NCBI GenBank assembly: GCA_965215025.1
Contig: CBDCCV010000001.1
Coordinates: 234,619 to 298,618, forward strand
Reading direction: 5' to 3'
DNA length: 64,000 bases
Origin: Salinibacteraceae bacterium
GTDB taxonomy: Bacteria > Bacteroidota > Rhodothermia > Rhodothermales > Salinibacteraceae
Made by a program: the position numbers and the translations under genes. Below the pieces are notes generated by a model that saw only the letters and a program-made list of their open reading frames with translations, was not told the origin of the DNA and did not search any database. Numbering within the stretch: the stretch's first letter is position 1; every line of letters starts with the position of its first letter. Positions 5,302 to 61,069 of this stretch are shown one piece after another.

Positions 5302-6636
5302 CTACTGCCGGCTGTCGTTGTCGCGGCTGCTCCGGCTGGAGCGTCCGGAGGAGCGACGGCTGCCCGAGGAGCTACGGCTGCCCGAGGAGGAACGCACGGC
5401 GCTGCCCGAGGAAGAGCGCGAGCCGGATGAAGAGCGCGCCCGGCTGCTTGAACGGCGGCTGCCTGAAGAGCTGCGCGAGGAGCCGCCGGAGCGTTGCACC
5501 GCGCTGCCGCCACGCGAGGAGCCGCGCGAGGAGCCGCGCGACCGCCGCGTGCGGCTGCCGCTGTCGTTATCGCGCGAGGAGCCTCGGCTCTGGACGGCGC
5601 GCCCGCTGCTGCGGTCCGTATCGCTGCCGCGCGAGCGGGTGCGCGTACCTTGGTCGCTGCGCGTCGGGCTGCTGGTGCGGCCCGTACGGGCGCCGCGGCT
5701 TGGCGCATCGCTCGAGGAGCGGCCCACGGTGCTGCGGCCTGTGCGCGTGCCCTCGTTTGAAGGCGTGCGGCTCACGGCGCGGCCTTGGATCGTGCCCCGC
5801 TCCGAGGCGGCGCTGCCCCGGCCGAGGCGTCCGCGCGCCACGTCATCGCTGACGCCGCGTCCGGTGGTGCGGCGGCCCACGGTGCCCGCCGTCCCACGCC
5901 CCACGGTGCCGCGGCGCGGCTCAAAGCTGCGGTCGCGCGGCACGATTACGCCCGGCGCGTCGTAGCGGTAGCCGCCGTAGAACGCCGCCGTCCCGTAGTA
6001 GAAGCTCGGGCGGTAGCGGTTGTAGCGATACCCGTAGCTGTACGGGTAACCGTAAAACGGATTGCAGTGCCTGTAGCCGTAGCCGTAGAAGCCGCCGTAG
6101 CCGTACCCGTAGCCATGGTTAAGGCAAGAGGAGTACGAGGCGTAGAAGAACGAGTCGTGCCGGAACGGATCGTAGTAGAACGGCCGTCCGATGCGCAGGT
6201 TGAGGAAGAACTCGCTCCTGGAGATGTACGGGCTGTAGAGCGGGTCAAAGGCGTACCGCGAGCCGTAGTAGCCCCCGTAAGGCGGGCCGTAGAAAAGCGA
6301 CCTGTGGTAATACGACCGATACCCGCCTGCGATGTCGAGGTAGCGCAGCCGCTCCTGGTACTCGTGGTAGCTGATGCGCCCCCGGTAGCGGTCCTCGTAG
6401 ACCTGCCGGGCCGCCTCGTAGCGCGCCTCTTCGCCGTAGACATCCGTCACTTCGTCTTCGTAGTAGAACTCGCCGTCGTCGTACTGGACCTCCCGGTCCT
6501 CAGAAGTCCGAGGCGGCGCGTCGTTTACAGTGGCGAGTTGCGTGTAGCACCCCGTCAGCCCGAGGAGGAGCATCGCCGCCACCAGCGGAGCAAGCGAAAG
6601 GGGTTTGCGAGAGATCATCGCAGACATGCGTTTCAT
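5302..6636 (-). CDS. lipoprotein with Tyr/Gly-rich block and long Arg/Ser-rich low-complexity tail
   Basis: Start MKRMSAMISRKPLSLAPLVAAMLLLGLTGC (lipobox LTGC); GYGYGYGGFYGYGYRH block; ~200-aa RS/SR/GSR tail; degenerate tandem DNA repeats 5340-5600. Confidence 0.6.
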   Translation of the reverse strand: MKRMSAMISRKPLSLAPLVAAMLLLGLTGCYTQLATVNDAPPRTSEDREVQYDDGEFYYEDEVTDVYGEEARYEAARQVYEDRYRGRISYHEYQERLRYLDIAGGYRSYYHRSLFYGPPYGGYYGSRYAFDPLYSPYISRSEFFLNLRIGRPFYYDPFRHDSFFYASYSSCLNHGYGYGYGGFYGYGYRHCNPFYGYPYSYGYRYNRYRPSFYYGTAAFYGGYRYDAPGVIVPRDRSFEPRRGTVGRGTAGTVGRRTTGRGVSDDVARGRLGRGSAASERGTIQGRAVSRTPSNEGTRTGRSTVGRSSSDAPSRGARTGRTSSPTRSDQGTRTRSRGSDTDRSSGRAVQSRGSSRDNDSGSRTRRSRGSSRGSSRGGSAVQRSGGSSRSSSGSRRSSSRARSSSGSRSSSGSAVRSSSGSRSSSGSRRSSGRSSRSSRDNDSRQ

Positions 6637-6940
6637 GGCACTCCTCCTCTGGTAAGTTTCCAAAGCAGCATTAACTGACGCTACCTTTCGTGTTACGAAC
6701 AAAGATTTACAAAGTTTTACAGCGGTCCCTTCTGACGGCTCTATCGGAAACAACCTGGCTTTGAAAACCGCGCCGCCGCCGAGTATATTCTTCGCCTCCC
6801 TCGCTGCAACGCACGTTCTACCTGTCCGCTTGTTTGAAAAAACAGCAAAGACTGCGCCGGTTTTAGAAGCGCTCCGTGCAGCAGCTGATGCGGTTTTCTC
6901 CCCTGCGTTGCTCAAGAAATCCATCACCCCCCCGTACACT

Positions 6941-8416
6941 ATGGCCGACGCCCTCACCGCCCGCGCTGACGATTATTCCCAGTGGTACATCGACGTGGTG
7001 CGCCAGGCCAAACTGGCCGACTACTCGCCCGTGCGCGGCTGCATGGTCATTCGTCCTAACGGCTACGCGCTTTGGGAAAACATGCGCCGCGTCCTCGACA
7101 AGATGTTCAAGGACACGGGCCACGAAAACGCCTACTTCCCTCTTTTCGTCCCGGAGTCCTTCCTCTCGAAAGAGGCCGAGCACGTCGAAGGCTTCGCCAA
7201 AGAGTGCGCCGTGGTCACCCACTCGCGCCTCGTCCCCAACACCGACGGCACGGGCCTCATGCCCGATCCGGAGTCGAAACTGGCCGAGCCGCTCGTCGTC
7301 CGCCCCACCTCGGAGACGATCATCTGGAACACGTACGCGGATTGGATTCAGTCCTGGCGTGACCTCCCCATCCTCATTAATCAGTGGGCCAACGTCGTCC
7401 GCTGGGAGATGCGCACGCGGCTTTTCCTGAGGACGATGGAGTTCTTGTGGCAAGAGGGCCACACCGCCCACGCTACGAAGGAAGAGGCCATCGAAGAAAC
7501 GCTGCGGATGCTCGGCGTGTACGCCACCTTTGCCGAGGAGTACATGGCGATGCCGGTGATCCAGGGCGTCAAGACAGCGAGCGAGCGCTTCCCCGGCGCC
7601 GTGGACACCTACTGCATCGAGGCGCTGATGCAAGACGGCAAGGCGCTCCAAGCCGGCACGAGCCACTTCCTGGGGCAGAACTTCGCCAAGGCGTTCGACT
7701 GCACGTTTCAGAATGAGAACCAGGAGACGGAATACGTCTGGGCCACCTCGTGGGGCGTCTCAACGCGCTTGGTGGGCGGCCTCATCATGACGCACTCGGA
7801 CGACCAGGGCCTCGTTCTCCCCCCGAAGCTCGCCCCCACGCAGGCCGTCATCGTCCCCATCTACTTCAACGACGAGCAACGCGCCGACGTGCTCGAAAAA
7901 GCCGAACAGATCGAGCGCGAACTCACCGACGCCGGCATCTCGGTAAAGCTCGACGCGCTCGACGCCTACCGGCCCGGCTGGAAGTTCAACGAGTACGAGC
8001 TGCAGGGCGTGCCCGTGCGCCTCGGCCTCGGCCCGCGCGACCTCAAAAACGAGAACGCCGAGATGGCCCGCCGCGACACCGGCGACAAGGAAATCGTCCC
8101 GCAAGCCGGCCTCGCCGAGCGTGTGGGCGAAACGTTGGATGCCATCCAGAACGGCCTCTTCGAGCGCGCGAAAGCCTTCCGCAAGGACCACTCCACGCGC
8201 GTGGACTCGTACGACGACTTTAAGGAAGCGCTCGAAGAAACGGGCGGCTTCGTCTGGGCGCACTGGGACGGCACGGCCGAGACGGAGGCGCGCATTAAGG
8301 ACGAGACCGGCGCCACCATCCGCTGCATCCCGCTGGACCGCGACGACGAAGCGGGCGAGGACCTGCTCACCGGCGAGCCATCCGAGGGCCGCGTGGTGTT
8401 TGCGCGGGCGTATTAA
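6941..8416 (+). CDS. proS: proline--tRNA ligase, archaeal/eukaryotic-type class II
   Basis: [20 protein letters not shown]...; class II motifs; C-terminal ...[14 protein letters not shown] typical of this ProRS type. ORF N-terminal extension judged non-coding. Confidence 0.92.
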
Positions 8417-22397: not shown

Positions 22398-22628
22398 ACG
22401 CGCGGGAAGCAAGAGCGGAAAGAAAACGGCTCTGGCCCTACGGTAACGATCCGGCGGCAGAAGTGAAAGGCCGAGCGGCAGTTATTCGCGGTCCCGCATC
22501 GGCCTGGTTTTTCTGTCGTGCAACACGCATTCGCGGCGGACGAATTTTTGCCTTTCGCGTTTTCGTCCGCGTTCGTTCCTTGCGCTGTGTCCCTTCTTTC
22601 GAACCTTACCTTTGCGGAGGTGCCCGCC

Positions 22629-24101
22629 ATGCAACGACTGCTTCTTGCCACCCTCTTCGTCGCGCTCGCGCTGCCGGGCGCGGCGCTCGCCCCGAGCGTT
22701 TTCGCCCAGAGCATCCCGGTCAAGACCGTGCCGGTGGCCGAGGGCGATCAGTTCCTCCTCTTCCCCTCCCAGAACGAGAGCATGGGCGGCGTCTCCATCG
22801 CCTTAGAAGACCCCCTAGCCGATCCGTTCGTGAACCCGGCCAAGGGCATCCGCACCGAGGGCGCGCACGTCTCCCTCGCGCCGGTGTACTACGGCTTCTC
22901 GGCCGATCAGGCCGCCATGGACGACGGCTCCGGCCGCACGCTGCCGATGAGCGCGCTCGCACGAAGCGGGCATTACTTCGGCGGGGCGGCGCTGGCGTGG
23001 CAGGAGCTGGTCTTGCCGCAACTCGAAAACGGCTGGCTCCCACAGCCGGCGCGCGAGGCCGAGCGCTCGCAGGACAACCTCTACGCCTTTGGCATGGGCG
23101 GCTTGCAGATCCCCGGCACGAACCTCTCGGTGGCGGCCAGCGCCTTGGTGGCGCGCCTGAACGGCATCGAGGGCGTGCGGATGCTCTACGCGCAGGGCAG
23201 CCAGGTGGACCAGTCCGGCACGATGGGCCTCTACCGCCTGGGCCTCTACCGCCACTGGACCGACGGGCGCTCGGCCGAGGCCGTCTTCATGCACCACCGC
23301 TTCTCGATGGAGCACGACATGCTCGAATGGCAGGGCGGCGACGGCTGGGAACGCGAGGGCACCTGGGCCGAGCGCACCGAGGAAGACCGCACGCTCGGCT
23401 GGGCGCTGCGCCTCGGCTACCAGCACCCGCTCTCTAACGGCTGGCGCCTCGGCGCGCAGGCCACCGGCGACTGGAAGTGGCACCCGAAGATCCCCAACTA
23501 CGACCTCATGCAGATCCCGCGCGATCCGGGCCGCTCCGAGGCGTACAACATCGGCATCGGCGTGGCGCGCAAGGTGGGGCCAGCGGCGTTCGGTCTCGAC
23601 CTCATCTACGAGCCGATCTGGAGCCACACCTGGGCCGACGCGCTTGAAGACACCGAGACCAACGCCGGCGGCCTCGTCCGCGCCGGGCAGATGACCGTGG
23701 AGAACCACTTCCGCTTCCACAACGCCCGCCTGAAGATGGGCGCGCGGCGCGAGGCCGGGCGGTTCGACTTCGCCCTTGGCCTTGACGCGCACCGCATCCG
23801 CTACCACCTCGACCAGCAGAACTTCGTGCAGGTCTTCGAGCGCGAGATGGAGGAGAGCTGGACGGAGTGGACGTTCACGACGGGCCTGGGCCTGCGCTTC
23901 CCCGAGTTCACCGTCCGCTACCAGGGCGCCCTGACGCTGGGCACGGGCCAGCCCTCCACGCGCCGGTTCGTGGCCGAGACGGCGGACTTCGCCATGGCCG
24001 CCCGCGCCGACTACATCATCGCGCCCAACGGCGCCTTGACGCTCGACGAGGCGCGCGTGTTCACGCACCAGGTCTCCGTCACCGTGCCGCTGACGCGCTG
24101 A
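22629..24101 (+). CDS. secreted/outer-membrane hypothetical protein (490 aa)
   Basis: Signal peptide MQRLLLATLFVALALPGAALAPSVFAQ; aromatic/Gly-rich beta-rich composition. Confidence 0.65.
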   Translation: MQRLLLATLFVALALPGAALAPSVFAQSIPVKTVPVAEGDQFLLFPSQNESMGGVSIALEDPLADPFVNPAKGIRTEGAHVSLAPVYYGFSADQAAMDDGSGRTLPMSALARSGHYFGGAALAWQELVLPQLENGWLPQPAREAERSQDNLYAFGMGGLQIPGTNLSVAASALVARLNGIEGVRMLYAQGSQVDQSGTMGLYRLGLYRHWTDGRSAEAVFMHHRFSMEHDMLEWQGGDGWEREGTWAERTEEDRTLGWALRLGYQHPLSNGWRLGAQATGDWKWHPKIPNYDLMQIPRDPGRSEAYNIGIGVARKVGPAAFGLDLIYEPIWSHTWADALEDTETNAGGLVRAGQMTVENHFRFHNARLKMGARREAGRFDFALGLDAHRIRYHLDQQNFVQVFEREMEESWTEWTFTTGLGLRFPEFTVRYQGALTLGTGQPSTRRFVAETADFAMAARADYIIAPNGALTLDEARVFTHQVSVTVPLTR

Positions 24102-28741: not shown

Positions 28742-29036
28742 CGCGCCTCCGCTTCCATCAGGCGGCTGCCTGAAACGTCCGCGCTCCATCCGACAAGCAG
28801 GCCGAGGCCGGCTTCCCCGCAAACGCTGCTGGTGCTCCGCCGCGTGCCGCTCTGGTGCGCGGCTTTTCTTTGTGCCGGGCGCCCCGCCTTCTTTCCGATT
28901 GCGATGCGTCTCTTTTTCATTTCTTTACTTTGCAGAGGGAGGCAATCTCATTATTAAGTTTGACAGTTGACTACTTGAACCTTAAAATTAAAACTGAACT
29001 ATCCATCTTGCTTCACAAACCATTGCCAACGCCAGC

Positions 29037-30407
29037 ATGAAGCTCCGTTTCGTCACTGCCCTTGCTTTTGTTCTCGTCCTCAGCGCGGCGCCGGTGTGGG
29101 CGCAGGACGCCGCCACCGCCGAGGCCGTGCAGGTCAACCTCAACTACGTGTGGACGATCATCGCGGCGGCCCTCGTCTTCCTCATGCAGGCGGGCTTCGC
29201 GCTCTTGGAGACGGGCCTGACGCGCGCCAAGAACGCCGTCAACATCATCATGAAAAACGTGATGGACGCCTCGGCGGGCGCGCTCGCGTTCTTCTGCGTC
29301 GGCTTTGGGCTGATGTTCGGGCACACGACGGGCGGCTGGTTCGGCACGGACGGCTTTTTCCTGGCGGGCGTGACGGATCAGCCGGCCGAGTGGACGTACG
29401 CCTTCTTTTTCTTCCAAGCCGTCTTTGCGGCCACGGCGGCCACCATCGTCTCCGGCGCCGTGGCCGAGCGGGTGAAGTTCAGCGGGTACCTCATCTTCTC
29501 GGTGCTGGTGACGGCGCTGATCTACCCCGTCTTTGGGGCGTGGGCGTGGGGCGGCCTCTTCAACGGCGGCGGCTGGCTCGAAGCCTTGGGCTTTATCGAC
29601 TTCGCCGGCTCGACGGTGGTGCACTCGGTGGGCGGATGGGCCGCGCTCGCCGGCGCGATGGTCGTGGGGCCGCGCGCTGGGAAGTACGATGCCGAAGGGC
29701 GGCCCCGCAGCATCGAGGGGCACAGCCTGCCGTTGGCCGCGCTGGGCGTCTTCATCCTGTGGTTCGGATGGTTCGGCTTCAACGCCGGCTCGACCACCGT
29801 GGGCGACACGGCCATCGCGCTCATCGCCACGAACACGTTTCTGGCCGCCGGCGCGGGGGCCGTGGGCGCCATGACCATCACCTGGATTAAAAACGGGAAG
29901 CCCGACGCGGGCATGACGCTCAACGGCGTACTGGGCGGCTTGGTGGGGATCACGGCCGGCTGCGCGAACCTCGTCCCCGGCTTCGCCATCCTGACGGGCG
30001 CGGTGGCGGGCGTGGTCGTCGTCTTCGCCAGCGAGGTTATCGAGCGCTTCGTGGACGACCCCGTGGGCGCGGTGGCCGTGCACGGCGTGTGCGGTGCGTG
30101 GGGCACGCTCGCCGCCGGCCTCTTCGACGCGGGCGGGTTCAGCCTTCCTCAGCTTGGCGTGCAGGCCCTGGGCGTAGGCGCAGCGTTCTTGTGGGCCTTC
30201 CCGCTCTGCTACGTGCTTTTCAAGGGGATCGACCGGCTCGTGGGCGGGCTGCGCATCAACGGCGATCTGGAGAAGAGCGGACTCGATCTGCACGAGCACG
30301 CCGTCCGCGCCTACCCCGAGTTCGGCCGCCATCACGCCTCGGCGCGTGCGGAGCCGGCGCGTGCCGACGTCCGCGAGTACGAGAACGGCGAGGTCGTGGC
30401 GCCTTGA
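29037..30407 (+). CDS. amt: ammonium transporter Amt
   Basis: 456 aa; signal peptide; Amt signatures DFAGSTVVHSVGGWAALAGA, GWFGFNAGS, VHGVCGAWGTL. Confidence 0.93.
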   Translation: MKLRFVTALAFVLVLSAAPVWAQDAATAEAVQVNLNYVWTIIAAALVFLMQAGFALLETGLTRAKNAVNIIMKNVMDASAGALAFFCVGFGLMFGHTTGGWFGTDGFFLAGVTDQPAEWTYAFFFFQAVFAATAATIVSGAVAERVKFSGYLIFSVLVTALIYPVFGAWAWGGLFNGGGWLEALGFIDFAGSTVVHSVGGWAALAGAMVVGPRAGKYDAEGRPRSIEGHSLPLAALGVFILWFGWFGFNAGSTTVGDTAIALIATNTFLAAGAGAVGAMTITWIKNGKPDAGMTLNGVLGGLVGITAGCANLVPGFAILTGAVAGVVVVFASEVIERFVDDPVGAVAVHGVCGAWGTLAAGLFDAGGFSLPQLGVQALGVGAAFLWAFPLCYVLFKGIDRLVGGLRINGDLEKSGLDLHEHAVRAYPEFGRHHASARAEPARADVREYENGEVVAP

Positions 30408-36464: not shown

Positions 36465-39449
36465 ATGCGCTCGCTGGCCTTTTCTTTTCTCCTTGCCGCG
36501 TTTCTCGTAGCGGGGCCGGCCTCGTCCGCAGCGCAGGGGTTCAACGCCTTCAGCGGGCGCAACCATCCCGAACTCCGCTGGCAGGCGGCCGAGACGGAGC
36601 ACTTCGAGATCATGTACCCGCAGCGCCTGGCCGGCATCGAGGCCGAGGCCGCCCCCCTCGCCGAGGCGGCGTACGCCGCCCTCTCGGCTAACCTGAACGT
36701 CACCTTCGATGAGAAAATCCGCATCTACCTTTCCGATGAGGACGAGATCGTCAACGGGTTTGCCGTGCCCATCGGCGCAGGATACACCAACATCTGGGTG
36801 CACGTGAACGACGCCGCCGACGTCTTCACCGGGCGCGAGAAGTGGCTGCGGAAAGTCTTGGCGCACGAGCTGGCGCACATCTTTCACTACCGCGCCGTCC
36901 GGTCGAACCTCGGCTTCTTCGGCCTCGTCCTCGCCGATGCGCTGCCGAGCTTTTGGACCGAAGGCCTGGCGCAGTACCAAACCGAAACCTGGGACGCGCA
37001 GCGCGGCGACCGCTGGCTGCGCACGGCCATTCTCGAAGACGATCTGTCGTACACCGATGGCCGCTCCGTCTGGAACGGGCGCCTGAAGTACGCCGTCGGC
37101 AACGCGCAGGTGCGCTACTTTGCCGAGCAGTACGGTGACTCGACGCTCGCCCGCCTCCTCGCCCACCGCGACACGCTCCTCTTCGGTTTGGCGCGCGTGC
37201 ACGATTTTGAATCGGCCTTCGAGGACGTGGCCGGAAAAACGCACCGCGCCTTCTACGACGACTGGCGGCGCCACCTCAACGTCTACTACAACACGCTCGC
37301 CGGGCAGCTGCCCGCGCCGGACTCGCTCGAGCTTGAAGACCTCGATGTGCCGGGCCGCTACGTCTACGACGTGCGCTTTTCGCCCGATACGGCGCGCGTG
37401 GCCGTCGTGTCGCTGCTCTCGCCGCGCCGCCCGGTGCGCCGGCTCTACGTGCTCGATCCATCTTCGGGAGATGTAGAAACGGTGGCCGAGGGGCCGATCC
37501 GCGCGCCGGTAAGCTGGAGTCCGGATGGGCAGCGGATCGCGTTCGCGCGCCTCTCGCGTGGGCGCAAAGGCTCGCTCCTGAACGATCTTTTCGTGGTGGA
37601 TGCGGATGGAAAAAATCTGCGCCGCCTCACCCGGAGCCGCCGCACCTCTTCGCCCGCGTTCGATCCGCAAGACGGTCAGCGGCTGGCTTTCATCGGATCG
37701 GAAGACGGGACGGCGAACGTTTTTCTGCTTGACCTGAAAACGGGCCGGGAGACGCCGCTTACGCGCTTCGCGGGCGACGTGCAGCTTTCCGGGCTGGCGT
37801 GGAGTCCCACGGGCGGGCAGCTCGCCTTCGCCCGCTTCAACGCGGACGGGACGCGCGGCCTCGTCCTCCTCGACCCTGCGGAAACCGAGCCGCTCGCACT
37901 CCGAAACGGCGCCATGCCCTCCGCTACGCTCACCGCCATCACGAGCGGGAGCCACGATGACCGCTACCCCGTCTGGCGCCCGGATGGAAAGCAGATCGCC
38001 TACACCTCGCTCCGCGACGACGTGCCGAACGTGTTCGTCTACGACCTCGCCGAAAAGACGCACCGGCGCGTGACGCACCTCGTCAGCGGCGCGACGGCGC
38101 ACGGCTGGCTCCCGCCCGACTCCGCCTTTGCTGAGGGGCGGCTTGTGATCACCACGACGGTGAGCAAAGCGCGCGACGCGGCGCACCTCCTCGACGCCGC
38201 GCACCGGGCCGCGCCCGCCGAGGCATCAGTGCCGGCGGGGTTTGCTACTTGGACCACGCACCGCCCGCCGCAGGAGGTGGCCGAGCGCGTGCCGCCGGAT
38301 GCCTCGCTCATCACGGCGCGCTATCCGTACCGTTCGTGGGCGAATATCACACATGTGGCCTCCCTGGCCGTGCCGTACTACCTCGGCCCGGACGACGCCG
38401 GGATCGCCGGCTTCACGGCGTGGACGGAGCCGCTGGGCAAGCACGCCATCGCGGCGGGCGGCGCGTTTTCGCTCACGGCGCCGGCCTCGAACAGCGCCTT
38501 TTTCGGCGCTTACGTCAACAATCAGCTTTATCCGACGCTCGCGTTTAGCGCGTACCGGCTGCCCGGCTCGGCGCGCGCGTATGGCGACGACCTCTTGGTG
38601 GAAGGCTTCCTGGGCGGCGATGTCGAGGCGCTGTGGCCGCTGGACTGGCGCGCGCGACCCTACGCCTCGACGCGCCTGGGCGTGCGGCTGCGCTACGTGG
38701 ATGTCGAGCCGGAGCGGCCCGAAGACATCGACCTCGAAGGCAGCCCGCTCCTGCGCCCCGAGGCCGGGCAGCAGGCCGACCTCCGCCTCGCGCTCACGCG
38801 CACGAAGCTGCGCCCGTACCGCGACAACCCCGTCCACCCGCTCGACGGCTACGGCCTGCGCGCGCAGGTGACGGGTGCCGCCCCGCTCCTTGGCGCTGAC
38901 TTTTCTTTTGTGCGAGGCGATGTGGCGGCGTACACCGTCCGCCCCGGCTTCTTCGGCTTGCAGCGCCTCTTCTTCTACGCCCGCGCGCAGGCGCAGACGG
39001 GTGATCCGCTGCCGCAGGACTACCTCGGCTTCTCACGCTACGACCACGTGCAGATCGGCGCGGCCGGCCTCCTCCCGATCTCCCTTGGCGACACGGAGCG
39101 CGTGCGCGGCTACCGATCCTACGCTGTGGGCACGCGCGCGCTTTTCGGCTCGGTGGAATACCGCGTCCCGCTCCTCAGCGATTTGCAGACCGAGATCCTT
39201 GGCCTCGCCCGCCTGGGCACGACCACGCTGGCCGCCTTCGCCGACGGCGGCCTCGTCTGGACGGGCGCCGACGTGGCCGGCGGCGTGCAGCGCGCGGGCG
39301 TGGGGCTGGAGGTCAAGAACGCGCTGGTCCTCTTCGGAGGCGGCCTCCGCCTCGCGCACGCCGTGGGCGTAGCGCAGCCGGCGGAGCGCTTGGGTAGCGC
39401 GACGGACTACGAGGTTTACTACCGCCTCCGCACGGCGCTGCCTTTCTGA
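36465..39449 (+). CDS. 994-aa outer-membrane protein: N-terminal HExxH zincin-like domain + PD40/TolB-like beta-propeller repeats + C-terminal Omp85/BamA-type beta-barrel
   Basis: Signal peptide; HELAHIFH; repeated WSPDGxxIAF-type PD40 motifs; C-terminal Bac_surface_Ag-like pattern ending YYRLRTALPF. Confidence 0.8.
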   Translation: MRSLAFSFLLAAFLVAGPASSAAQGFNAFSGRNHPELRWQAAETEHFEIMYPQRLAGIEAEAAPLAEAAYAALSANLNVTFDEKIRIYLSDEDEIVNGFAVPIGAGYTNIWVHVNDAADVFTGREKWLRKVLAHELAHIFHYRAVRSNLGFFGLVLADALPSFWTEGLAQYQTETWDAQRGDRWLRTAILEDDLSYTDGRSVWNGRLKYAVGNAQVRYFAEQYGDSTLARLLAHRDTLLFGLARVHDFESAFEDVAGKTHRAFYDDWRRHLNVYYNTLAGQLPAPDSLELEDLDVPGRYVYDVRFSPDTARVAVVSLLSPRRPVRRLYVLDPSSGDVETVAEGPIRAPVSWSPDGQRIAFARLSRGRKGSLLNDLFVVDADGKNLRRLTRSRRTSSPAFDPQDGQRLAFIGSEDGTANVFLLDLKTGRETPLTRFAGDVQLSGLAWSPTGGQLAFARFNADGTRGLVLLDPAETEPLALRNGAMPSATLTAITSGSHDDRYPVWRPDGKQIAYTSLRDDVPNVFVYDLAEKTHRRVTHLVSGATAHGWLPPDSAFAEGRLVITTTVSKARDAAHLLDAAHRAAPAEASVPAGFATWTTHRPPQEVAERVPPDASLITARYPYRSWANITHVASLAVPYYLGPDDAGIAGFTAWTEPLGKHAIAAGGAFSLTAPASNSAFFGAYVNNQLYPTLAFSAYRLPGSARAYGDDLLVEGFLGGDVEALWPLDWRARPYASTRLGVRLRYVDVEPERPEDIDLEGSPLLRPEAGQQADLRLALTRTKLRPYRDNPVHPLDGYGLRAQVTGAAPLLGADFSFVRGDVAAYTVRPGFFGLQRLFFYARAQAQTGDPLPQDYLGFSRYDHVQIGAAGLLPISLGDTERVRGYRSYAVGTRALFGSVEYRVPLLSDLQTEILGLARLGTTTLAAFADGGLVWTGADVAGGVQRAGVGLEVKNALVLFGGGLRLAHAVGVAQPAERLGSATDYEVYYRLRTALPF

Positions 39450-39482
39450 TATTACCGCAGTGATAAGATCAAGCTCTGAATG

Positions 39483-39578
39483 TAACTTTTGCCCCCCCCC
39501 CGCCTTTACTTCATCGCCGCAAACGAGTATCTTGTTAGCGAAACATTCACGGTTAATGTACTTGTGGAGCATTGTGCT
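39483..39578 (+). promoter_or_regulatory. conserved leader copy 1: C10 homopolymer (39492-39501) + GCAAACG..TATCTTGTTAG + -7-like AATGTACTTGTG
   Basis: ~85-90% identical to 41983-42080 although downstream CDSs are only ~45% identical. Confidence 0.6.
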
Positions 39579-40655
39579 ATGCGCCTATCACTTCTTGAAG
39601 TCTTGCCCATTGGAGCGCTCCTGCTACTTGCCGCCACGCTACCGGGGTGCGACCTCTTCGGCTCGGATGGAGGGGGCAGCATTTTAGACGACGTGCCGCC
39701 AGAGCGCCTCGTGGCGATGGTCGCCGTTTACAACGACACCCATGAGAACGGCGCGCCAGTTCAGCGCCTCGTCTTGGCTGACTTCGAGAATCCTTCTGCC
39801 TACAAGGTACTCTCGGAGGCGGGCACCTTTGCCACTGAGCCGCGCTTCGCGCCGGGTAAGCGTCGGCTTCTCTTCGTAGACCAGACCGGAGCACGCACCG
39901 CCTCGGACGGGCAGGTCACGTTGCTCGACCTCGAAAGCGGCTCAGTACGTCCTCTCCTCTATGTGAGGGAGGACGGAAGGCAGTTCCCGCTCCGCGGCTC
40001 GCTCGAAGGCTTGGCTTGGGAGCCGGACGGCTCAGGGTTCTACTCGGCGCTCGCCGGGCCAGCGGGGCTGACGGTGGCCTACCACTACGATCTTGCGACG
40101 CGGCGCTTGCGTCCGTTCGCGCAGACGCAGGGCGGGGCCACAGTCATTCCGTACGGGCGCAAGGGGCAGGACTCGATCTTCGTGATCTCCAACGAGAGGC
40201 TCCGAGAGGGGGGGGACCGCATTCCGGGGTTCTACTTCGTAGACGCCGAGACGGGCGCGTACCTCGAACGCATCGAGAACGAGCACCTGCGGTTCGTCCG
40301 CTGGGAAGACCCCAGCCGTGGCGGATGGAGATATTCTGTGTACACGCCCGCCCTCGACGGGAAGGAAGAGTTGGTCGCCTTTCGGATCAATAACCCAGAA
40401 AACAGAGGCAACCTTGCTGTCGCGAGTCTCAGCGGAAGCTCATTCGAGGTCTACGGAGCTTCTGAAGAATACATTGACACTCTACCACGATGGGGGCCGA
40501 GCAGCGTGGTACTCTTCAACCGAAGCAGAGGCGCATCGTCTCCATTCCAAGCGCATCGCGTGATGGTCGTCGATACCGAAACAGGCGAGGTGCGAGCGTT
40601 TATCCGGCCAGAAGTCATTGACGGCGCAGCGGGTTTGCGCACGCCTGACTACTAA
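39579..40655 (+). CDS. lipoprotein (single PD40-like motif), paralog A
   Basis: MRLSLLEVLPIGALLLLAATLPGCDLFG lipobox; paralogous to 42081..43163. Confidence 0.78.
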   Translation: MRLSLLEVLPIGALLLLAATLPGCDLFGSDGGGSILDDVPPERLVAMVAVYNDTHENGAPVQRLVLADFENPSAYKVLSEAGTFATEPRFAPGKRRLLFVDQTGARTASDGQVTLLDLESGSVRPLLYVREDGRQFPLRGSLEGLAWEPDGSGFYSALAGPAGLTVAYHYDLATRRLRPFAQTQGGATVIPYGRKGQDSIFVISNERLREGGDRIPGFYFVDAETGAYLERIENEHLRFVRWEDPSRGGWRYSVYTPALDGKEELVAFRINNPENRGNLAVASLSGSSFEVYGASEEYIDTLPRWGPSSVVLFNRSRGASSPFQAHRVMVVDTETGEVRAFIRPEVIDGAAGLRTPDY

Positions 40656-40842
40656 GCGTACCCAGAGCACCTGCACCAGAACCCCCTATGGAGGTGATAC
40701 CACCAGCGACTGACGAAAGAAAAAACCCTCGGAAGCAGCACCGACGAGGCCGCACTCCGGCAAGAGATACCGGCCTCAGCAGACTGCCCACGAGGGCTTC
40801 TCACAGCAACCCTTCCAGCCATTCAGACACAAGAGACTCGCC

Positions 40843-41988
40843 ATGAGACATCTCGCTATAGTCCTTATTCTTCTTCTTGTTTCCACCACTCTGGCTTCTG
40901 CGCAGGAGCGTCCAGGTCAGGGACCACCTGACTCGGCACGCGCAGCCACCGTTGCGCAGTTCCGTTCACAGCACGGCCCCGAATGGCAGATCGCCTGGCA
41001 TGAGAAAGCAGCGGCCCCTGCCACGCTCATGGGCGGCACAGCGCGTGGCTACAGCGGGCCGCCGGAGCAGGTCGGCCGCGCCTTCCTGCACGACCACCGC
41101 GCCCTCTTCGGCATCGAGAACGCACAGCAGAATCTCGAAGTCGCTCGGTCGAACGCCTCGCGCGGCAACAGCCGAGTGCTCTATCGGCAGGTTTACCAGG
41201 GCCTCCCTGTCTTATACAGCGGCTACCTCGTGGCCGTCAACGAAGCCGGTGCCGTTTACTACGTCAGCGGCGATTACTACCCGGATTTAGAGGTACTCGA
41301 CGTCTCGCCTTCAGTCTCGCCCGCGAGCGCTGTCAGTCAGATACGCTCTGATCTCGGCGGCGCAGCCAGCTTCAAGGTGCTCCAAGAGCCGGTGCTCTCC
41401 ATCTACGTGGACGACGAAGGGGAGGATCTGTCTTACCACCTCGCCTACGAGGCGCGGGCCGAGCGCCGTGACCCTCTCGAAGCCTACAAATATGTGATCG
41501 ATGCCCAAAGCGGCGAGATCTTGCAGAAGATCAGCTTGGTCACAGATGTCGTCCATGGGGGCATACGCGCAGGGGATGGGGACGACGCTGCAACTGCTAA
41601 CGGCCCTACTGCCAGTACAGCGAGCGCTGTTAACGGCAGCGGAGAGGTCTACCTAACCAACCCACTTCATGGTTCGCCCACCAGCGTGACCCTCAACCGT
41701 CTGACCGCCAACTGGTGGGATAACTTCGACGAAGGTGAACGGCTCCACGGTGAGAACATAGTCGTGACTAACGCTGAGGCGCCGGAGGCATTTTCCTCGA
41801 ACCATGAGTTCGACTACAGCCCCTCGAACACGCACTTCGATGAGGTCATGGCGTATTACCACAGCGATGCCTTCGAAGGGTGGCTCATCGGCAGCCTCGG
41901 CATGGCTTCGAATCAACTGGCCTGCCAGTCCGCACGGCGCTGCCGTTTTGAGTGTTACCGCAGGAATAAGACCGGACACGAAGTGTAA
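40843..41988 (+). pseudogene. truncated paralog of M4-type peptidase (propeptide FTP/PepSY region only; no HExxH)
   Basis: Aligns to N-terminal 380 aa of 43358..45706 product then diverges into ...ACQSARRCRFECYRRNKTGHEV* at the duplication junction. Confidence 0.6.
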
Positions 41989-42080
41989 CGATTGCCCCCC
42001 CCCGCCTTTACTTCACGGATGCAAACGGATATCTTGTTAGTGGAAAAATCACAATGAATGTACTTTTGGAGCACACGGTC
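41983..42080 (+). promoter_or_regulatory. conserved leader copy 2: C10 homopolymer (41994-42003) + -7 box TACTTTTG 12 nt before ATG
   Basis: See copy 1. Confidence 0.6.
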
Positions 42081-43163
42081 ATGCGCTGTTCTCTACCCCG
42101 CTGCATCTTATTTGCCTGGAGCGCCGCACTACTCGTCGTGCTGCCGGGGTGCGACCTCTTCGGCTCGGGCAAGGACGACGATCCCGGCGTGGAGGGCGTG
42201 CCGCCGGAGCGCCTCGTGGCAATGGTCGCTGTCTGGGACGATGGGAAGGGCGGCGACAAACCAGTGCATCGCCTCGTCGTGGCCGACTTCGACGACCCCG
42301 CCGCGCGCTACGACGTGCTCAGGAAGGCCGGCGAGGAGGTACAAACCACCTGCTTCTCGCCTGACAAACGCCGCATTCTCTTCGCTGACAACAGCGGGAG
42401 CATCACCGGCGGACGCTCAGCGATGAAGCTCTACAACCTCGACAGTGGCGAAGTGCGCGCGCTCGACGGGGCGCCTACCGCTGCCACGTACGGCGGCACC
42501 AGCATGAGGTGTGTCTGGAGCGCGGATGGCTCAGGCTTTTACTACATGGCAGCTGGAGCCGCTGGAGCAGCTTTCTCCATGTACTACGACGTAGAAACCA
42601 AGCAGGCGCGACCATTCGGCATAAGAGAAACGGCGGGCGGTGATCCGGTCAGCGGTGTTTTCTTTTTTGGCCTCAAGGGCCAAGACACGTTGATCGTGCG
42701 CTCTCAAATGTCGGAAAAGGCGCCGGACAGTCTTCATTACCTTATTGACGGCTACCACTATGTTGACGCCCAGACGGAGAAGTATCTCGGACGTATTAAG
42801 AACGAACACTTAAAATTCATTCCGTGGGAAGACAAAAGTCGCGGAGGCTTCAAACGAGCCGCCTACAGCGTGACCTACGACGGTGCGCCCGGCTTGATCG
42901 CCTTCATGCGCAAGACCGAAGAAGAGCGCAGCCTCGCCGTCACCGATCTCGAAGGCTCGTTCGTGAAAGACCTCACGACGGGCGGGCCGCTCTACATGGA
43001 CCTGGCGTGGAAGGGGCGTAGTACCCTGCTATTTTCTCAAGGGGGCGCGCAGAACCGTCCGCGCCGCATTTACGTCGCCAACGTCGAAACCGGCGAAGTG
43101 CGCTCCCTCGTCGAGCCGAACGCTATCGACGGAGCCATCCGACTTACCGAACCCGACTACTGA
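42081..43163 (+). CDS. lipoprotein, paralog A'
   Basis: MRCSLPRCILFAWSAALLVVLPGCDLFG; same architecture as 39579..40655. Confidence 0.78.
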   Translation: MRCSLPRCILFAWSAALLVVLPGCDLFGSGKDDDPGVEGVPPERLVAMVAVWDDGKGGDKPVHRLVVADFDDPAARYDVLRKAGEEVQTTCFSPDKRRILFADNSGSITGGRSAMKLYNLDSGEVRALDGAPTAATYGGTSMRCVWSADGSGFYYMAAGAAGAAFSMYYDVETKQARPFGIRETAGGDPVSGVFFFGLKGQDTLIVRSQMSEKAPDSLHYLIDGYHYVDAQTEKYLGRIKNEHLKFIPWEDKSRGGFKRAAYSVTYDGAPGLIAFMRKTEEERSLAVTDLEGSFVKDLTTGGPLYMDLAWKGRSTLLFSQGGAQNRPRRIYVANVETGEVRSLVEPNAIDGAIRLTEPDY

Positions 43164-43357
43164 TTCTCGCTTCGCTCTCCCTCACAAATGCTTCCAGAGG
43201 TGATGCCTGTCAACCGATTCTGACCGCAAACACGAAAAAAAGCCCTCGAAGGCTGCGCCGGCCGGACTGTGTCCGCCAAGACAAACAGGTCCGCGCGCGT
43301 GGCCTCGCAAGGGCTTCTTCACGACCGTCCTCCCGTCATCCAAACCGGAAAACAGCC

Positions 43358-45706
43358 ATGAAGCGTTCGACCATAGCCCTCATCCTCGCTTTTGTTTCTA
43401 CCGCCCTGTTCGCCGCGCCCGGTCTCGCGCAGACGCAGCAAGGGCCGCCCGATGCGGCGCCCGATTCGGTGCGCCGCGCCGCCGCCGCACAGTTTCAACA
43501 AGACCACGGCGCGGCGTGGCAGATCCAGTGGAGCGCCGAAACCGGCACGCCCGCCACACTCATGAGCGGCACCGCCGCCGGTTATAGCGGCCCACCGGAG
43601 CAGGCCGGTCGCGCCTTCCTCGAAGACCACGCGCAGCTCTTCGGCATCGAGAACGCGCAGACGAACCTGCGCGTCGCCCGGCAAAACGCCTCGCAGAGCG
43701 GTAGCGCGCAGGTGCTCTACCAGCAGGTCTACCGGGGCGTGCCCGTCCTCGCCAGCGGCTACCTCGTGGCCGTCAATGAGGCCGGTGAGGTTTATTACGT
43801 CAGCGGCGACTACTATCCGGACGTGAAACTGCCAAGCGTCGCGCCGCAGGTCAGCGCGCAGGCGGTGGTGCGCCACATGCGCGACGATCTCGACGCTGCC
43901 GGCCCGTCCAGCGAGTTCGAGGTGCTGGAGCAGCCGGAGCTGGTCGTCTACGTCGATAAGGGCAACGCAGGAACCGGCCCCGATGCGGGAAGCGCGGGCG
44001 AAAGCCTTTCGTACCACCTCGCCTACGTGGCGGAGGCCGAGCGGCGCAGTCCCCTCGAAGCCTACAAATACGTCATCGACGCGCAGAGCGGCACGGTGCT
44101 CTACAAAACCAGCCTCGTCGAAGACGCCGGCCACGCGCACGGCTTCGGCGGCGAGACACCGGCGACCGACGCCGGCGACGCGCGGCCCCGGCGCAACGCG
44201 GCAGGCAACGCCGCCCTCGTCAACGCGAGCGGGGAAGTGTACCGCACCAATCCGCTGCACGGAAGCCCGGTCACGGTGACGCTGACGCGCCTGCGCGACC
44301 TTTCCCCGCGCGACCTGTACGGCTACGAGGTAGACGTCAACGACCGCTTCGGCAACGCCGCCCTCTCCCCCTCGGGCGAGTTCGACTACAGCCCGTCAGA
44401 CTTTCGCTTCGACCAGGTCATGGTGTACCACCACAGCAACGACTTCGAGGCGTGGCTCGTCGGCGACCTCGGCTGGAGCGACGACACCGGCGAGGTGAAC
44501 GCCGAGACGCGCAGCGACCAGTGCTACGCCTGCACCATTCCATCTCAGGAGGACGCCTTCTACTCTGACGGCACAGGCTACCCCAATGTCATCCCTGGCT
44601 TCGAAAATCCGACGCACGAGGCGAGCATCATGGCGCACGAGCAGATGCACATCGTCAGCGAGAAGTACGATGACTTGAATCACAACGGCGACGGTGACGC
44701 CCTCGACGAAGGCTACTCCGACTACTTCGCCGTCGCCTATCGGATCGACCGGCAGAGCGGGCAATCCACGGTTGTTGGCGAATACGCCTTCGGCTCTACC
44801 ACGGCTGATCGCAACGTAGATAACAATTACGATGACCGCAACGCCGATAACGACGGCTGGGGTGGAAATAACTTCTACGACGAGTCGCTGGTGTTCAGCG
44901 GCGCGCTGTGGGACTTCACCACCGACGTTGCAACCGACGTAGAGGAGGCGGCCACGATCACGCTCGGCTCGCTGGGCCACCTCGACGCCGACCCGTCATT
45001 TCTGGACGCGCGCAACGCGCTCATCGCCGCTGCCAGAGACGCTGACAAGAGCAACTACGAGTGCGGCATCAAGCAGGCCTTTGCTGACCACGGCATCGGC
45101 ACGGCCCTGGGCGTGGAGGTTTACGGACCAACGGCGCGCATCAGTGGAGAGTCGGGCACGTGGTATGCCTCGGCCGAGTGCGCACGCAGTTCCGTTTCCT
45201 ACAAGTGGTACAAGCGCCCCCAAGGGACGCCCCCAAGCCACAACTTCTACATTGGCAGCGGCTCACAGATCACCGTTGCTTTCCAAGAAAGCGTCATCCT
45301 TTCGGCTAAGGGCACAAGCGGAGGAGAGACCGCCTGGGGAGAAATAAGCGTCTACGTAGGCGGCGGTGGCGGGTGCAATGCAGCTACCGGAAACCCCCCG
45401 GAACCCTGCTTAGTCTCGTCGCCCGGGGAGGCGCTGCCCGAAGCGTTCGCCCTCGAAGAGAGCTACCCGAACCCGGTGCGCAGTGAGGCGCAGATCCGCT
45501 ACGCGCTCCCCGAAGCTGCTCACGTTGAGCTATCCGTCTATGACGCGCTCGGGCGCGAGGTCGCGCGCTTGGCCGATGGCGAGAAGCCAGCCGGCTACCA
45601 CACGGCGACGTTCGAGGCGGGCGGGCTGCCGAGCGGCGTCTACGTCTACCGCCTGCGCGCGGGCGACGCCTTTGCCGAGTCCGGCAAGCTCGTCGTGGTG
45701 AAGTGA
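43358..45706 (+). CDS. secreted M4 (thermolysin-like) zinc metallopeptidase with propeptide and T9SS C-terminal sorting domain
   Basis: Signal peptide; HEQMHIV (HExxH) + ALDEGYSDYFA (second zinc-ligand motif); C-terminal ...SGVYVYRLRAGDAFAESGKLVVVK (Por_Secre_tail-like). Confidence 0.82.
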   Translation: MKRSTIALILAFVSTALFAAPGLAQTQQGPPDAAPDSVRRAAAAQFQQDHGAAWQIQWSAETGTPATLMSGTAAGYSGPPEQAGRAFLEDHAQLFGIENAQTNLRVARQNASQSGSAQVLYQQVYRGVPVLASGYLVAVNEAGEVYYVSGDYYPDVKLPSVAPQVSAQAVVRHMRDDLDAAGPSSEFEVLEQPELVVYVDKGNAGTGPDAGSAGESLSYHLAYVAEAERRSPLEAYKYVIDAQSGTVLYKTSLVEDAGHAHGFGGETPATDAGDARPRRNAAGNAALVNASGEVYRTNPLHGSPVTVTLTRLRDLSPRDLYGYEVDVNDRFGNAALSPSGEFDYSPSDFRFDQVMVYHHSNDFEAWLVGDLGWSDDTGEVNAETRSDQCYACTIPSQEDAFYSDGTGYPNVIPGFENPTHEASIMAHEQMHIVSEKYDDLNHNGDGDALDEGYSDYFAVAYRIDRQSGQSTVVGEYAFGSTTADRNVDNNYDDRNADNDGWGGNNFYDESLVFSGALWDFTTDVATDVEEAATITLGSLGHLDADPSFLDARNALIAAARDADKSNYECGIKQAFADHGIGTALGVEVYGPTARISGESGTWYASAECARSSVSYKWYKRPQGTPPSHNFYIGSGSQITVAFQESVILSAKGTSGGETAWGEISVYVGGGGGCNAATGNPPEPCLVSSPGEALPEAFALEESYPNPVRSEAQIRYALPEAAHVELSVYDALGREVARLADGEKPAGYHTATFEAGGLPSGVYVYRLRAGDAFAESGKLVVVK

Positions 45707-45747
45707 GTAAGAGGAAAGCAGCCAGCCGGTTGCTCTGTAGAAGAAAA

Positions 45748-45786
45748 AGCGCCCCGCGCCCTTTCCGGAGCCGGGGCGCTTTTTCT
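45748..45786 (+). terminator. Rho-independent terminator AGCGCCCCG...CGGGGCGCT + TTTTT
   Basis: Read directly after stop 45704-45706. Confidence 0.65.
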
Positions 45787-45999
45787 GTTACCTCAGCGCA
45801 TTCCGCCAGCAGACTTCCAAAGCGGAGCCTTCGACGAGAACCACGAAGTGCGGCTCAGCGTCCTGGAGAAAGCCCCACGCCATAGATGTGCACGAGGTCG
45901 TTAGCAAAGGACGGTATGGGTAGGCGCGAAGTGGCAGGCTGAAACGGCGATGCGCGCGGCGATAGATATAAGCGTTGCGAAACGGGGAAACGATGAGTG

Positions 46000-61003: not shown

Positions 61004-61069
61004 GGGTTGGGTGTGGGGGTGTGGGAGAATGGGGGGGTGGGCGCCGTCTGCAACAGAGGCGTACCCAAT

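Follow-up and report, generated by a model that had tools for sequence, protein, structure and literature searches.

Tandem lipoprotein and M36 peptidase genes behind poly-C tracts in a Rhodothermales bacterium: anatomy, history and a candidate mutable promoter

The 64-kb stretch of DNA analysed here (the window throughout; 66.8% G+C) carries on its plus strand two tandem units, each made of a leader containing a run of cytosines, a gene for a propeller lipoprotein and a gene for an M36 prepropeptidase, and it raises the question of why the two leaders resemble each other more than the genes behind them and whether the cytosine runs act as a mutable control of expression. The TsaD protein encoded in the window is 73 to 76% identical to proteins of Rhodocaloribacter, Rhodothermaceae and Rhodothermus marinus, so the host is a Rhodothermales bacterium. 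Of what follows, anatomy, domains, fold, phylogeny and tract lengths are observations. We propose a model in which the region would consist of two tandem operons of A and B type, each in the order promoter, TolB-like propeller lipoprotein, spacer hairpin and M36 prepropeptidase exported by the type IX secretion system (T9SS), with a sigma-70-type promoter, a slippage-prone tract beside it and a lipoprotein that would gate the peptidase. Taken as a whole, this explanation has in our estimate an even chance of being right.

Anatomy and origin of the two units

Both units had been recognised in the first-pass annotation of this DNA, and they are present as it described them. We call the window lipoproteins W1 and W2 and their peptidases W1p and W2p; L-numbers denote homologous loci and P-numbers homologous proteins. 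The genes are as follows.

39450 to 39578, plus strand: leader of unit 1
39579 to 40655, plus strand: lipoprotein 1, 358 amino acids, A-type, lipobox LPGC followed by Asp, TolB-like beta-propeller
40843 to 41988, plus strand, after a spacer of 187 nt: truncated A-type M36 prepropeptidase open reading frame (ORF), 381 amino acids, with signal peptide, FTP and PepSY, no HExxH and no C-terminal sorting domain
41952 to 42080, plus strand: leader of unit 2
42081 to 43163, plus strand: lipoprotein 2, 360 amino acids, B-type, a mosaic
43358 to 45706, plus strand, after a spacer of 194 nt: full-length B-type M36 (fungalysin-like) prepropeptidase, 782 amino acids, with HEQMH and a T9SS C-terminal sorting domain

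The units represent two anciently diverged types, A (unit 1) and B (unit 2). In a neighbour-joining tree, W1 falls with L003b, L005, P0008 and P0012 (type A, ~50% identity) and W2 with L001, L002 and P0004 to P0006 (type B, ~55% identity), while the N-terminal part of W1p is 63 to 64% identical to the intact A-type peptidases L003p and L005p and that of W2p 79% identical to the B-type L010p. Since the lipoprotein and peptidase groupings agree across loci, the A/B split predates the separation of these organisms. Between the units, the lipoproteins share 41% of their residues (BLASTP, E 3e-73), which bears out the low identity noted earlier at a figure under the ~45% then given; the peptidases are 52% identical over ~360 amino acids. 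The coding sequences agree at 55% of nucleotides. At 4-fold degenerate sites of conserved residues, identity is 43% in the lipoprotein against 35% expected from codon usage, and 50% in the peptidase against 37% expected; synonymous sites thus look close to saturation.

How an A-type and a B-type unit came to lie in tandem is suggested by the boundary between them, which involves the gene upstream of the array.

36465 to 39449, plus strand: gene for a 994-amino-acid outer-membrane protein; Pfam PD40 and Omp85, HELAH at residue 134
39427 to 39449, plus strand: last 23 nt of that gene (…RTALPF*), source of the relic copy
41906 to 41928, no strand assigned: duplication junction, assignable neither to the peptidase nor to the relic; peptidase homology stops near 41905
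41929 to 41951, plus strand: relic copy of the 3' end of the 994-amino-acid gene, 21/23 identical to 39427-39449

The first peptidase copy had been described as ending at a duplication junction, and so it does: peptidase homology gives out near 41905, and a copy of the upstream gene's 3' end follows. Both differences between relic and source are synonymous in the frame of the 994-amino-acid gene. The units are also homologous upstream of the C tract, with 67% identity in the 43 nt after the relic and agreement at 50 of 66 positions over the relic plus the spacer upstream of the tract. Because peptidase homology ends at ~41905 and an extension of the relic upstream past its 23 nt is not significant (p=0.73), the junction is placed within 41906-41928. 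The truncated ORF takes its final 29 codons, out of frame, from junction and relic DNA and stops at a TAA 7 nt before the C9 tract of unit 2. With a copied gene end and an out-of-frame ORF tail together at one place, the junction bears the marks of a tandem duplication, or of an unequal exchange, whose segment reached from the 3' end of the 994-amino-acid gene to mid-peptidase. We therefore favour a history, read from these breakpoints, in which unequal recombination or duplication would have joined an A-type unit 1 to a B-type unit 2, with the left breakpoint 23 nt or slightly more before the stop codon of the 994-amino-acid gene and the right one around codon 355 in the A-type peptidase gene; as the latter falls inside that gene, unit 1 would have been left with an ORF for signal peptide and propeptide only.

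The truncated copy gives no sign of decay. It runs through 361 codons without a stop, is 74% identical to L003 at codon positions 1 and 2 and 45% at position 3, and lies at a distance of 0.57 from the outgroup (0.52 and 0.53 for intact relatives). Hence, either the truncation is recent or a propeptide-only protein (signal peptide, FTP, PepSY) is under selection. An exact-sequence look-up in the protein collection did not return this ORF as called here.

Recombination has acted inside the units as well, and lipoprotein 2 is a recombinant mosaic. At the nucleotide level, W2 is 88 to 93% identical to L002 over the first ~150 nt of the mature protein, 80 to 87% in the spacer and 45 to 60% in the rest (matching stretches: window 42157-42306 with L002 2436-2579, and window 43204-43378 with L002 3443-3620). 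By segment, its N-terminal part is nearest L002 (83%), and its C-terminal part nearest L001 (53% vs 43%). Moreover, tandem arrays with peptidase remnants recur in this family in other organisms: two lipoprotein genes of L003 (643-3128) enclose a peptidase stub of ~40 codons, the spacer hairpin of L044 (1-370) leads straight into the next leader with no peptidase between, and L007 has peptidase fragments on either side of its second lipoprotein gene.

The leaders and their poly-C tracts

The second part of the question concerns the leaders, in which we distinguish the following elements.

39492 to 39501, plus strand: poly-C tract of unit 1, C10
39505 to 39533, plus strand: predicted sigma-70-type promoter P1 of unit 1 (-35 TTTACT at 39505-39510, N17, -10 TATCTT at 39528-39533)
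41995 to 42003, plus strand: poly-C tract of unit 2, C9
42007 to 42035, plus strand: predicted promoter P1 of unit 2 (TTTACT at 42007-42012, N17, TATCTT at 42030-42035)

The two leaders are 78% identical without gaps over 92 nt and 76% identical (66/87) from tract to ATG, compared with 45% in shuffled controls; the 85 to 90% first reported was too high. That the leader is better conserved than the genes is true with respect to the coding sequence and the 4-fold sites, but patches of the peptidase propeptide are conserved to the same degree (0.78-0.85). Since the leader stands at 76% while 4-fold sites are near saturation, it is either younger or more constrained than the coding sequence. Its conservation falls into blocks, namely C9-GCC-TTTACT-TCA (21 nt), GCAAACG, TATCTTGTTAG, AATGTACTT and TGGAGCA; the GCAAACG element pointed out earlier is confirmed, the window containing two exact copies of GCAAACGnnTATCTTGTTAG where 0.01 would be expected.

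We infer that the leader is mostly the promoter P1 followed by an unstructured 5' untranslated region: its ~90 nt would hold TTTACT-N17-TATCTT and then a short transcribed part of ~39 nt, with predicted transcription start sites read from the sequence near 39540 (unit 1) and 42042 (unit 2). The P1 hexamers and their 17-nt spacing are unchanged between the units, with six substitutions within the spacer, and P1 passes a relaxed promoter scan. The B-type orthologue L002 carries TTTATT-N17-TATCAT right after a C5AC3 tract, and the tract with its adjacent box is the sole part of the leader that matches another locus significantly (L002, p=0.002). A by-eye register between the promoters of W2 and L001 (20/35) gave p 0.5-0.8 in a shuffle test and is not used as evidence. 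The core pattern of the leader occurs only twice in the window, and a search for further copies, proposed in the first-pass annotation, found none beyond these two when an nhmmer profile was run over the window and 24 loci; an exact-pattern scan of metagenome contigs gave 0 matches. GGAG lies 9 nt before each lipoprotein ATG, a position that suits a Shine-Dalgarno sequence, but its meaning is uncertain because most genes of the window lack such sequences. An alternative promoter, TGTAAC-N18/17-TTTACT, would hold the tract in its spacer; its hexamers are poor.

The strict form TTGAC-N17-19-TAnnnT occurs four times in the window, each time with a 17-nt spacer and upstream of a gene. Elsewhere in the window, an unusually A/T-rich intergenic region (28900-29040) contains the best sigma-70 match, TTGACA-N17-TAAAAT (28960-28988), together with a TAAGTTTG box.

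The tracts had been described as two C10 runs, which is correct for unit 1; unit 2 has C9. They are the only runs of C or G of at least 9 in the 64-kb window, and both are uninterrupted G/C homopolymers of slippage length (at least ~8 nt). With 3 nt between its end and the predicted -35 downstream, neither tract alters the spacing of the core promoter by its length. A TGTAAC box lies upstream of the tract in W1 and W2, and CGTAAC in L002. We propose that the tract would be prone to slippage and that its length would tune or switch promoter output, in the window units by shifting upstream DNA such as the TGTAAC box relative to the core promoter. Across homologous leaders the tract ranges from C5 to C11; L005 and L006 have C9 after TTAAC. 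In the TTGACA-type leaders (L003, L012, L044), it lies inside a TTGACA…TAnnnT spacer of 16 to 23 nt, which tract length could change directly:

16 nt: L003b, C5
18 nt: L044, C7T7
19 nt: L013, C10
20 nt: L012, C11
23 nt: L003a, C3AC7

An alignment of L012 with L013, which come from two sequencing runs, spans 6010 nt and contains 0 mismatches and a single indel, C11 vs C10. The phase variation proposed earlier thus keeps its slippage-prone tract and gains indirect support from the different lengths within the window (C10 and C9) and among homologues and from one pair differing by one base, a single case in a homologue and near a contig end. As a mutable dial of expression the tract is plausible, though unproven, and we put its being a functional mutable element at even or a shade below.

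In unit 1, a G8 run (40208-40215) lies within the coding sequence of lipoprotein 1 (…REGGDR…), without counterpart in lipoprotein 2; a slip of +1 or -1 there would truncate the protein at residue 272 or 221.

The strongest alternative, to which we give nearly an even chance, takes the similarity of the leaders as history: a 5' module made of relic, leader and lipobox region would have been duplicated or homogenised after the A/B split. The relic has no obvious function in unit 2 and yet is almost unchanged, relic plus spacer are about as similar as the leader, and synonymous sites are near saturation in coding types older than speciation. The leader was not recovered from orthologous loci, the window units agree at 27 of the 28 nt surrounding the lipobox, and W2 is itself a recombinant. 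Furthermore, L007 offers a precedent, in which a leader and signal-peptide module of ~250 nt (6160-6410 and 7860-8085) is ~98% identical between adjacent lipoprotein genes of 400 and 335 amino acids with unrelated mature parts, the similarity stopping straight after the lipobox Cys-Asp-Leu. The module of the window is, however, patchy: identity starts at 91% in the relic, drops to 67% over the 43 nt that follow, reaches 100% across tract and -35 (21 nt) and is ~50% in the signal-peptide core, with peaks on the tract, the -35 and the -10. Such a pattern is better accounted for by selection on separate blocks than by a stretch of one age throughout. W2 also shares pre-tract variants (ACACGA, GTAACGAT) with L002 that W1 lacks. 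The first-pass annotation had argued for selection on the leader, unless gene conversion explained its conservation. Selection gains from the excess over synonymous sites, but deep selection acting on the leader as a whole is not supported, since a profile of the two leaders had no match in homologous loci and only tract and box match L002; gene conversion gains from the L007 module and the conserved relic, and has the block pattern against it. The historical explanation is compatible with our model and does not exclude it. Altogether, constraint on promoter blocks and recombinational sharing of the 5' module, as in L007, probably both contribute, and the higher similarity of the leaders would reflect the two together.

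A further alternative, possible but in our view less likely than not, is that the tract is passive and compositional, with no switching role, and that one-base differences are drift or errors of sequencing or assembly. Several observations weigh against our model here. For the promoter, P1 matches only 8/12 of the consensus, under the 9/12 threshold of the promoter scan, 15 sites in the window satisfy the relaxed rule that it satisfies, and conservation of the leader is undetectable in orthologous loci. For the tract, its position upstream of the -35, outside the -35/-10 spacer, leaves core spacing fixed, so that any effect would require a putative upstream element. The difference between L012 and L013 is a single case in which L013 begins 12 nt from its own tract, and one-base differences in homopolymers of 9 to 11 nt are a classic error of sequencing and assembly. 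L005 and L006, from different samples, both have C9, and in L039 to L043, whose lipoprotein shares 88% identity with the L005 one, the tract is missing. Because 5' regions of this genome are often C-rich on the sense strand, the tract could be a compositional extreme; C7 runs stand just upstream of two other starts, and 11 of 100 shuffles of the window reach at least three C9 matches.

Against a passive tract stand the facts that the only runs of at least 9 in 64 kb both sit at homologous positions of the leader, that leaders of both ancient lipoprotein types, in several organisms, repeatedly contain long C runs, that both tracts are uninterrupted despite 24% divergence of the leader (estimated chance ~0.09), and that the tract accounts for the 16- to 23-nt range of spacers in the TTGACA-type relatives. 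On the composition of the window itself, sense-strand 5' regions are C/T-rich and G-poor with few Shine-Dalgarno motifs, and the two C7 runs mentioned lie at 6927-6933 before the start at 6941 (plus strand) and at 61031-61037 before the start at 61003 (minus strand).

A different promoter had been put forward in the first-pass annotation, of the Bacteroidetes -33/-7 type, with a TAnnTTTG box whose distance to the ATG is 12 nt and an almost leaderless mRNA; the remaining leader would then be upstream regulatory DNA. This we consider very unlikely. In its favour, unit 2 matches TAnnTTTG perfectly with TACTTTTG, the ATG at 22629 is preceded at 14 nt by a similar TACCTTTG-GGAGG, and Shine-Dalgarno sequences are absent from most genes here, as in Bacteroidota. 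Unit 1, however, has TACTTGTG instead, so that the box is perfect in one copy only; by our reading, the nearest upstream TTG is 24 nt from the box compared with a usual spacing of 19 to 21 nt; TAnnTTTG occurs just three times in 64 kb, while TTGAC-N17-TAnnnT marks four gene starts; and the organism belongs to the Rhodothermales and not to Bacteroidia. The layout of unit 2, TAnnTTTG followed by GGAG(G) ~10 nt before the ATG, is also seen at 22607-22631 (TACCTTTGCGGAGGTGCCCGCCATG).

Finally, that the leader might be a cis-regulatory RNA (riboswitch, attenuator or thermometer) is suggested by its conserved blocks and by TTCACGGT…GYGGAG, spotted by eye in the leaders of L003 and L012 too, and is hardly credible given that Rfam gives no match, whether across the full window at gathering thresholds or within 39300-43500 at E up to 5, that fold energies are equal to or worse than those of shuffled controls (z -0.33 to +2.09) and that the likeness of the motif to other loci is not significant.

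The lipoprotein, the peptidase and the spacer between them

What the proposed promoter would express is a lipoprotein with no family in Pfam: neither copy matches any, PD40 included. The lipobox Cys24 is invariant, and Asp follows at +2 in at least 90% of sequences. The family comprises 16 proteins in a word-indexed search and 93 cluster representatives at E ≤ 1e-30 in a profile search. An AlphaFold model built from the 16-sequence alignment (pLDDT 83, pTM 0.81) is a beta-propeller, and its best solved matches are TolB structures (Foldseek E 1e-14, TM 0.60 to Escherichia coli TolB). In a profile scan of genome contigs with the lipoprotein, L008 and L009 were, among the matches listed, irrelevant propeller loci.

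The full peptidase copy matches Peptidase_M36 (44.7 bits, cut-off 23.3), FTP (29.2 bits, cut-off 21), M4_C weakly, and Por_Secre_tail at residues 703-773 (30.1 bits, cut-off 27), with HEQMH at residue 427. The truncated copy matches FTP and, weakly, PepSY only, and has neither HExxH nor Por_Secre_tail. Hence the first-pass description as a full T9SS-tailed copy and a propeptide-only copy is right, while its M4 label gives way to the Pfam assignment: M36, the fungalysin family of the same clan as M4, is the better label. The word-indexed search gave 11 matches for this M36/T9SS family.

The lipoprotein gene stands directly upstream, on the same strand, of an M36/Por_Secre_tail gene in the window, L003, L004, L005/6, L010, L011 and L012/13, and a peptidase gene follows the lipoprotein gene at every homologous locus with enough sequence. 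Taking this strict pairing as our sole basis, we propose that the lipoprotein would bind the peptidase and most likely hold, gate or inhibit it. The transcription start sites, the effect of tract length and this function of the lipoprotein are the parts of the model that we infer. Speaking against such a function, the lipoprotein gene is retained at loci whose peptidase is truncated, has been deleted or is decaying.

In L039 to L043, near-identical contigs from five samples, indels of 2 bp, 5 bp and 34 bp split the peptidase into several ORFs next to an intact lipoprotein gene, so the peptidase seems to be decaying in that population.

The spacer between the two genes holds a conserved element of its own, found in the window and at homologous loci.

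40720 to 40806, no strand assigned: conserved long hairpin 1, covariance-model match 51.9 bits; Shine-Dalgarno-like GGAGGTGAT at 40690-40698
43237 to 43323, no strand assigned: conserved long hairpin 2, covariance-model match 71.9 bits; Shine-Dalgarno-like AGAGGTGAT at 43196-43204
Whole spacer element, window: 40686-40845 and 43195-43360
Whole spacer element, L002: 3434-3606
Whole spacer element, L003: 1599-1745 and 3172-3324
Whole spacer element, L005: 4646-4794
Whole spacer element, L010: 837-1002
Whole spacer element, L011: 362-510
Whole spacer element, L012: 1307-1455
Whole spacer element, L039: 1735-1884
Whole spacer element, L044: 5-150

Its order is GGAGGTGAT, a run of A and, ~30-45 nt downstream of GGAGGTGAT, an imperfect hairpin of ~80 nt (−32 to −48 kcal/mol) with a near-invariant loop, GTCCGCCAAGAC. 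GGAGGTGAT is a perfect Shine-Dalgarno-like 9-mer in an organism that seldom uses such sequences. In an alignment of 12 sequences, 74.9% of cells pair, against 31 to 47% in slid controls, and the covariation score is 0.208 against ~0.1; none of 500 shuffles reaches the observed value. The covariance model found the element in these spacers only, and Rfam has no match for it.

In 10 of the 12 sequences, the minus strand forms the more stable hairpin (for hairpin 1, the folding z is -3.3 on the plus and -6.0 on the minus strand), A·C mismatches number 35 against 19 G·U pairs, and the stem is followed on the minus strand by T4 to T7 in most sequences (TT only in two), compared with only CUUCUU on the plus strand; hairpin 2 has a minus-strand terminator-like call at 43254-43241. 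Owing to its minus-strand stability, mismatch bias and trailing T run, the hairpin looks like an intrinsic terminator of antisense transcription across the start of the peptidase. Its conserved loop and its length are left unexplained by a terminator, and a minus-strand gene that it would serve is not known.

Two other leads on the spacer were dropped. A small ORF after GGAGGTGAT is open in W1 and L005, stops after 5 to 7 codons in W2, L002 and L003b, and is not conserved. A metagenome scan for the spacer motif gave 25 matches, all by chance inside GC-rich coding sequence. A minus-strand ORF of 313 amino acids (43319-44260), whose stop lies beside hairpin 2, was treated as a GC-rich artefact with no domain support; it lies over the 5' third of the full peptidase, the stretch that a hairpin-ended minus-strand transcript would cover.

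Around the array, the 994-amino-acid protein was correctly described as carrying an HExxH motif (HELAH), PD40 and Omp85, but the tie drawn between it and the module is not borne out: homologous cassettes have different upstream neighbours (S8 peptidase, AraC-type regulator, DsbA or chemoreceptor genes). The 994-amino-acid gene is thus context only, not a conserved partner of the cassette. The array closes with a terminator:

45737 to 45791, no strand assigned: bidirectional intrinsic terminator (A5, hairpin, T5) at the end of the array; inverted repeat I12 with 20-nt arms, 90% complementary, and a terminator call at 45763-45776

Wider reading and comparison with known systems

The solid outcome of this work is a corrected account of how the locus is built and how it evolved; the rest is not established yet. 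A reading that joins all of its parts would see a contingency system of Rhodothermales, in which arrays of propeller lipoproteins with poly-C-tuned promoters gate or inhibit one M36 protease, with the spacer element as a further component; we consider it unlikely in this complete form. Within it, lipoproteins that evolve fast and recombine would be expressed as different variants by subpopulations, and the RNA or terminator of the spacer would set the ratio of lipoprotein to protease or end an antisense transcript over the start of the protease. If the tracts do switch or tune their promoters, repeat-driven phase variation would extend beyond host-adapted pathogens, reaching Rhodothermota, an environmental phylum, as well as a system built on a secreted protease. 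The propeller lipoprotein and M36/T9SS peptidase module is itself unannotated, its lipoprotein having no Pfam family, and it may offer a structural alternative to the potempin route for the control of T9SS proteases. The conserved 80-nt hairpin, whose loop is invariant, is a candidate for a new motif, either RNA or terminator.

Poly-G/C tracts lie within the -35/-10 spacer of Neisseria porA and opc, and a C stretch occurs in Bordetella fim promoters. The TTGACA-type relatives of the window leaders, with their tract in that spacer, resemble porA and opc. The tracts of the window, just upstream of the predicted -35, resemble instead Neisseria meningitidis nadA, in which a distal repeat upstream of the core promoter alters the spacing of promoter elements (PMC2791445). 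Simple sequence repeats (SSRs) of N. meningitidis have been surveyed (PMC5084427). Like known SSR contingency loci, the locus has an uninterrupted G/C homopolymer of 9 to 11 nt at the promoter of a cell-envelope gene and a 1-nt length difference in one pair of otherwise identical contigs (L012/L013). Unlike them, its candidate tracts are known from sequence alone, whereas the known loci switch, and its host is a free-living member of the Rhodothermales and not a host-adapted pathogen; our literature search found no report of homopolymer phase variation in Rhodothermales.

The gene pair recalls the potempin/KLIKK operons of Tannerella forsythia, in which genes for small lipoprotein inhibitors directly precede those of T9SS peptidases and share a transcript with them (PMC9890683). 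Here, too, a same-strand lipoprotein gene immediately precedes a T9SS peptidase gene, in several pairs, and the lipoprotein genes have similar 5' and signal-peptide regions. However, potempins are beta-barrels of 98 to 132 residues (PMC9890683), whereas the lipoprotein here is a TolB-like beta-propeller of ~335 residues, and the T. forsythia genes overlap or lie at most 5 bp apart (PMC9890683), compared with a spacer of 187 to 194 nt with a conserved hairpin. Because fold, size and the ~190-nt spacer differ, the lipoprotein is not a potempin; by analogy, it may work like one.

The peptidase is like M36 fungalysins and M4 thermolysin-like enzymes in its FTP propeptide, its HExxH domain above the Pfam cut-off for M36 and its weak M4_C match, and unlike M36/M4 prepropeptidases in the T9SS C-terminal sorting domain of the full copy and in the existence of a propeptide-only ORF. 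The lipoprotein shares the fold of the six-bladed TolB/PD40 propellers and differs from them by its lipoprotein anchor, its lack of the TolB N-terminal domain and of a Pfam PD40 match, and a genomic context of peptidase and not tol-pal genes. Thus, the candidate SSR-tuned promoter and the module of lipoprotein and T9SS protease both belong to known kinds.

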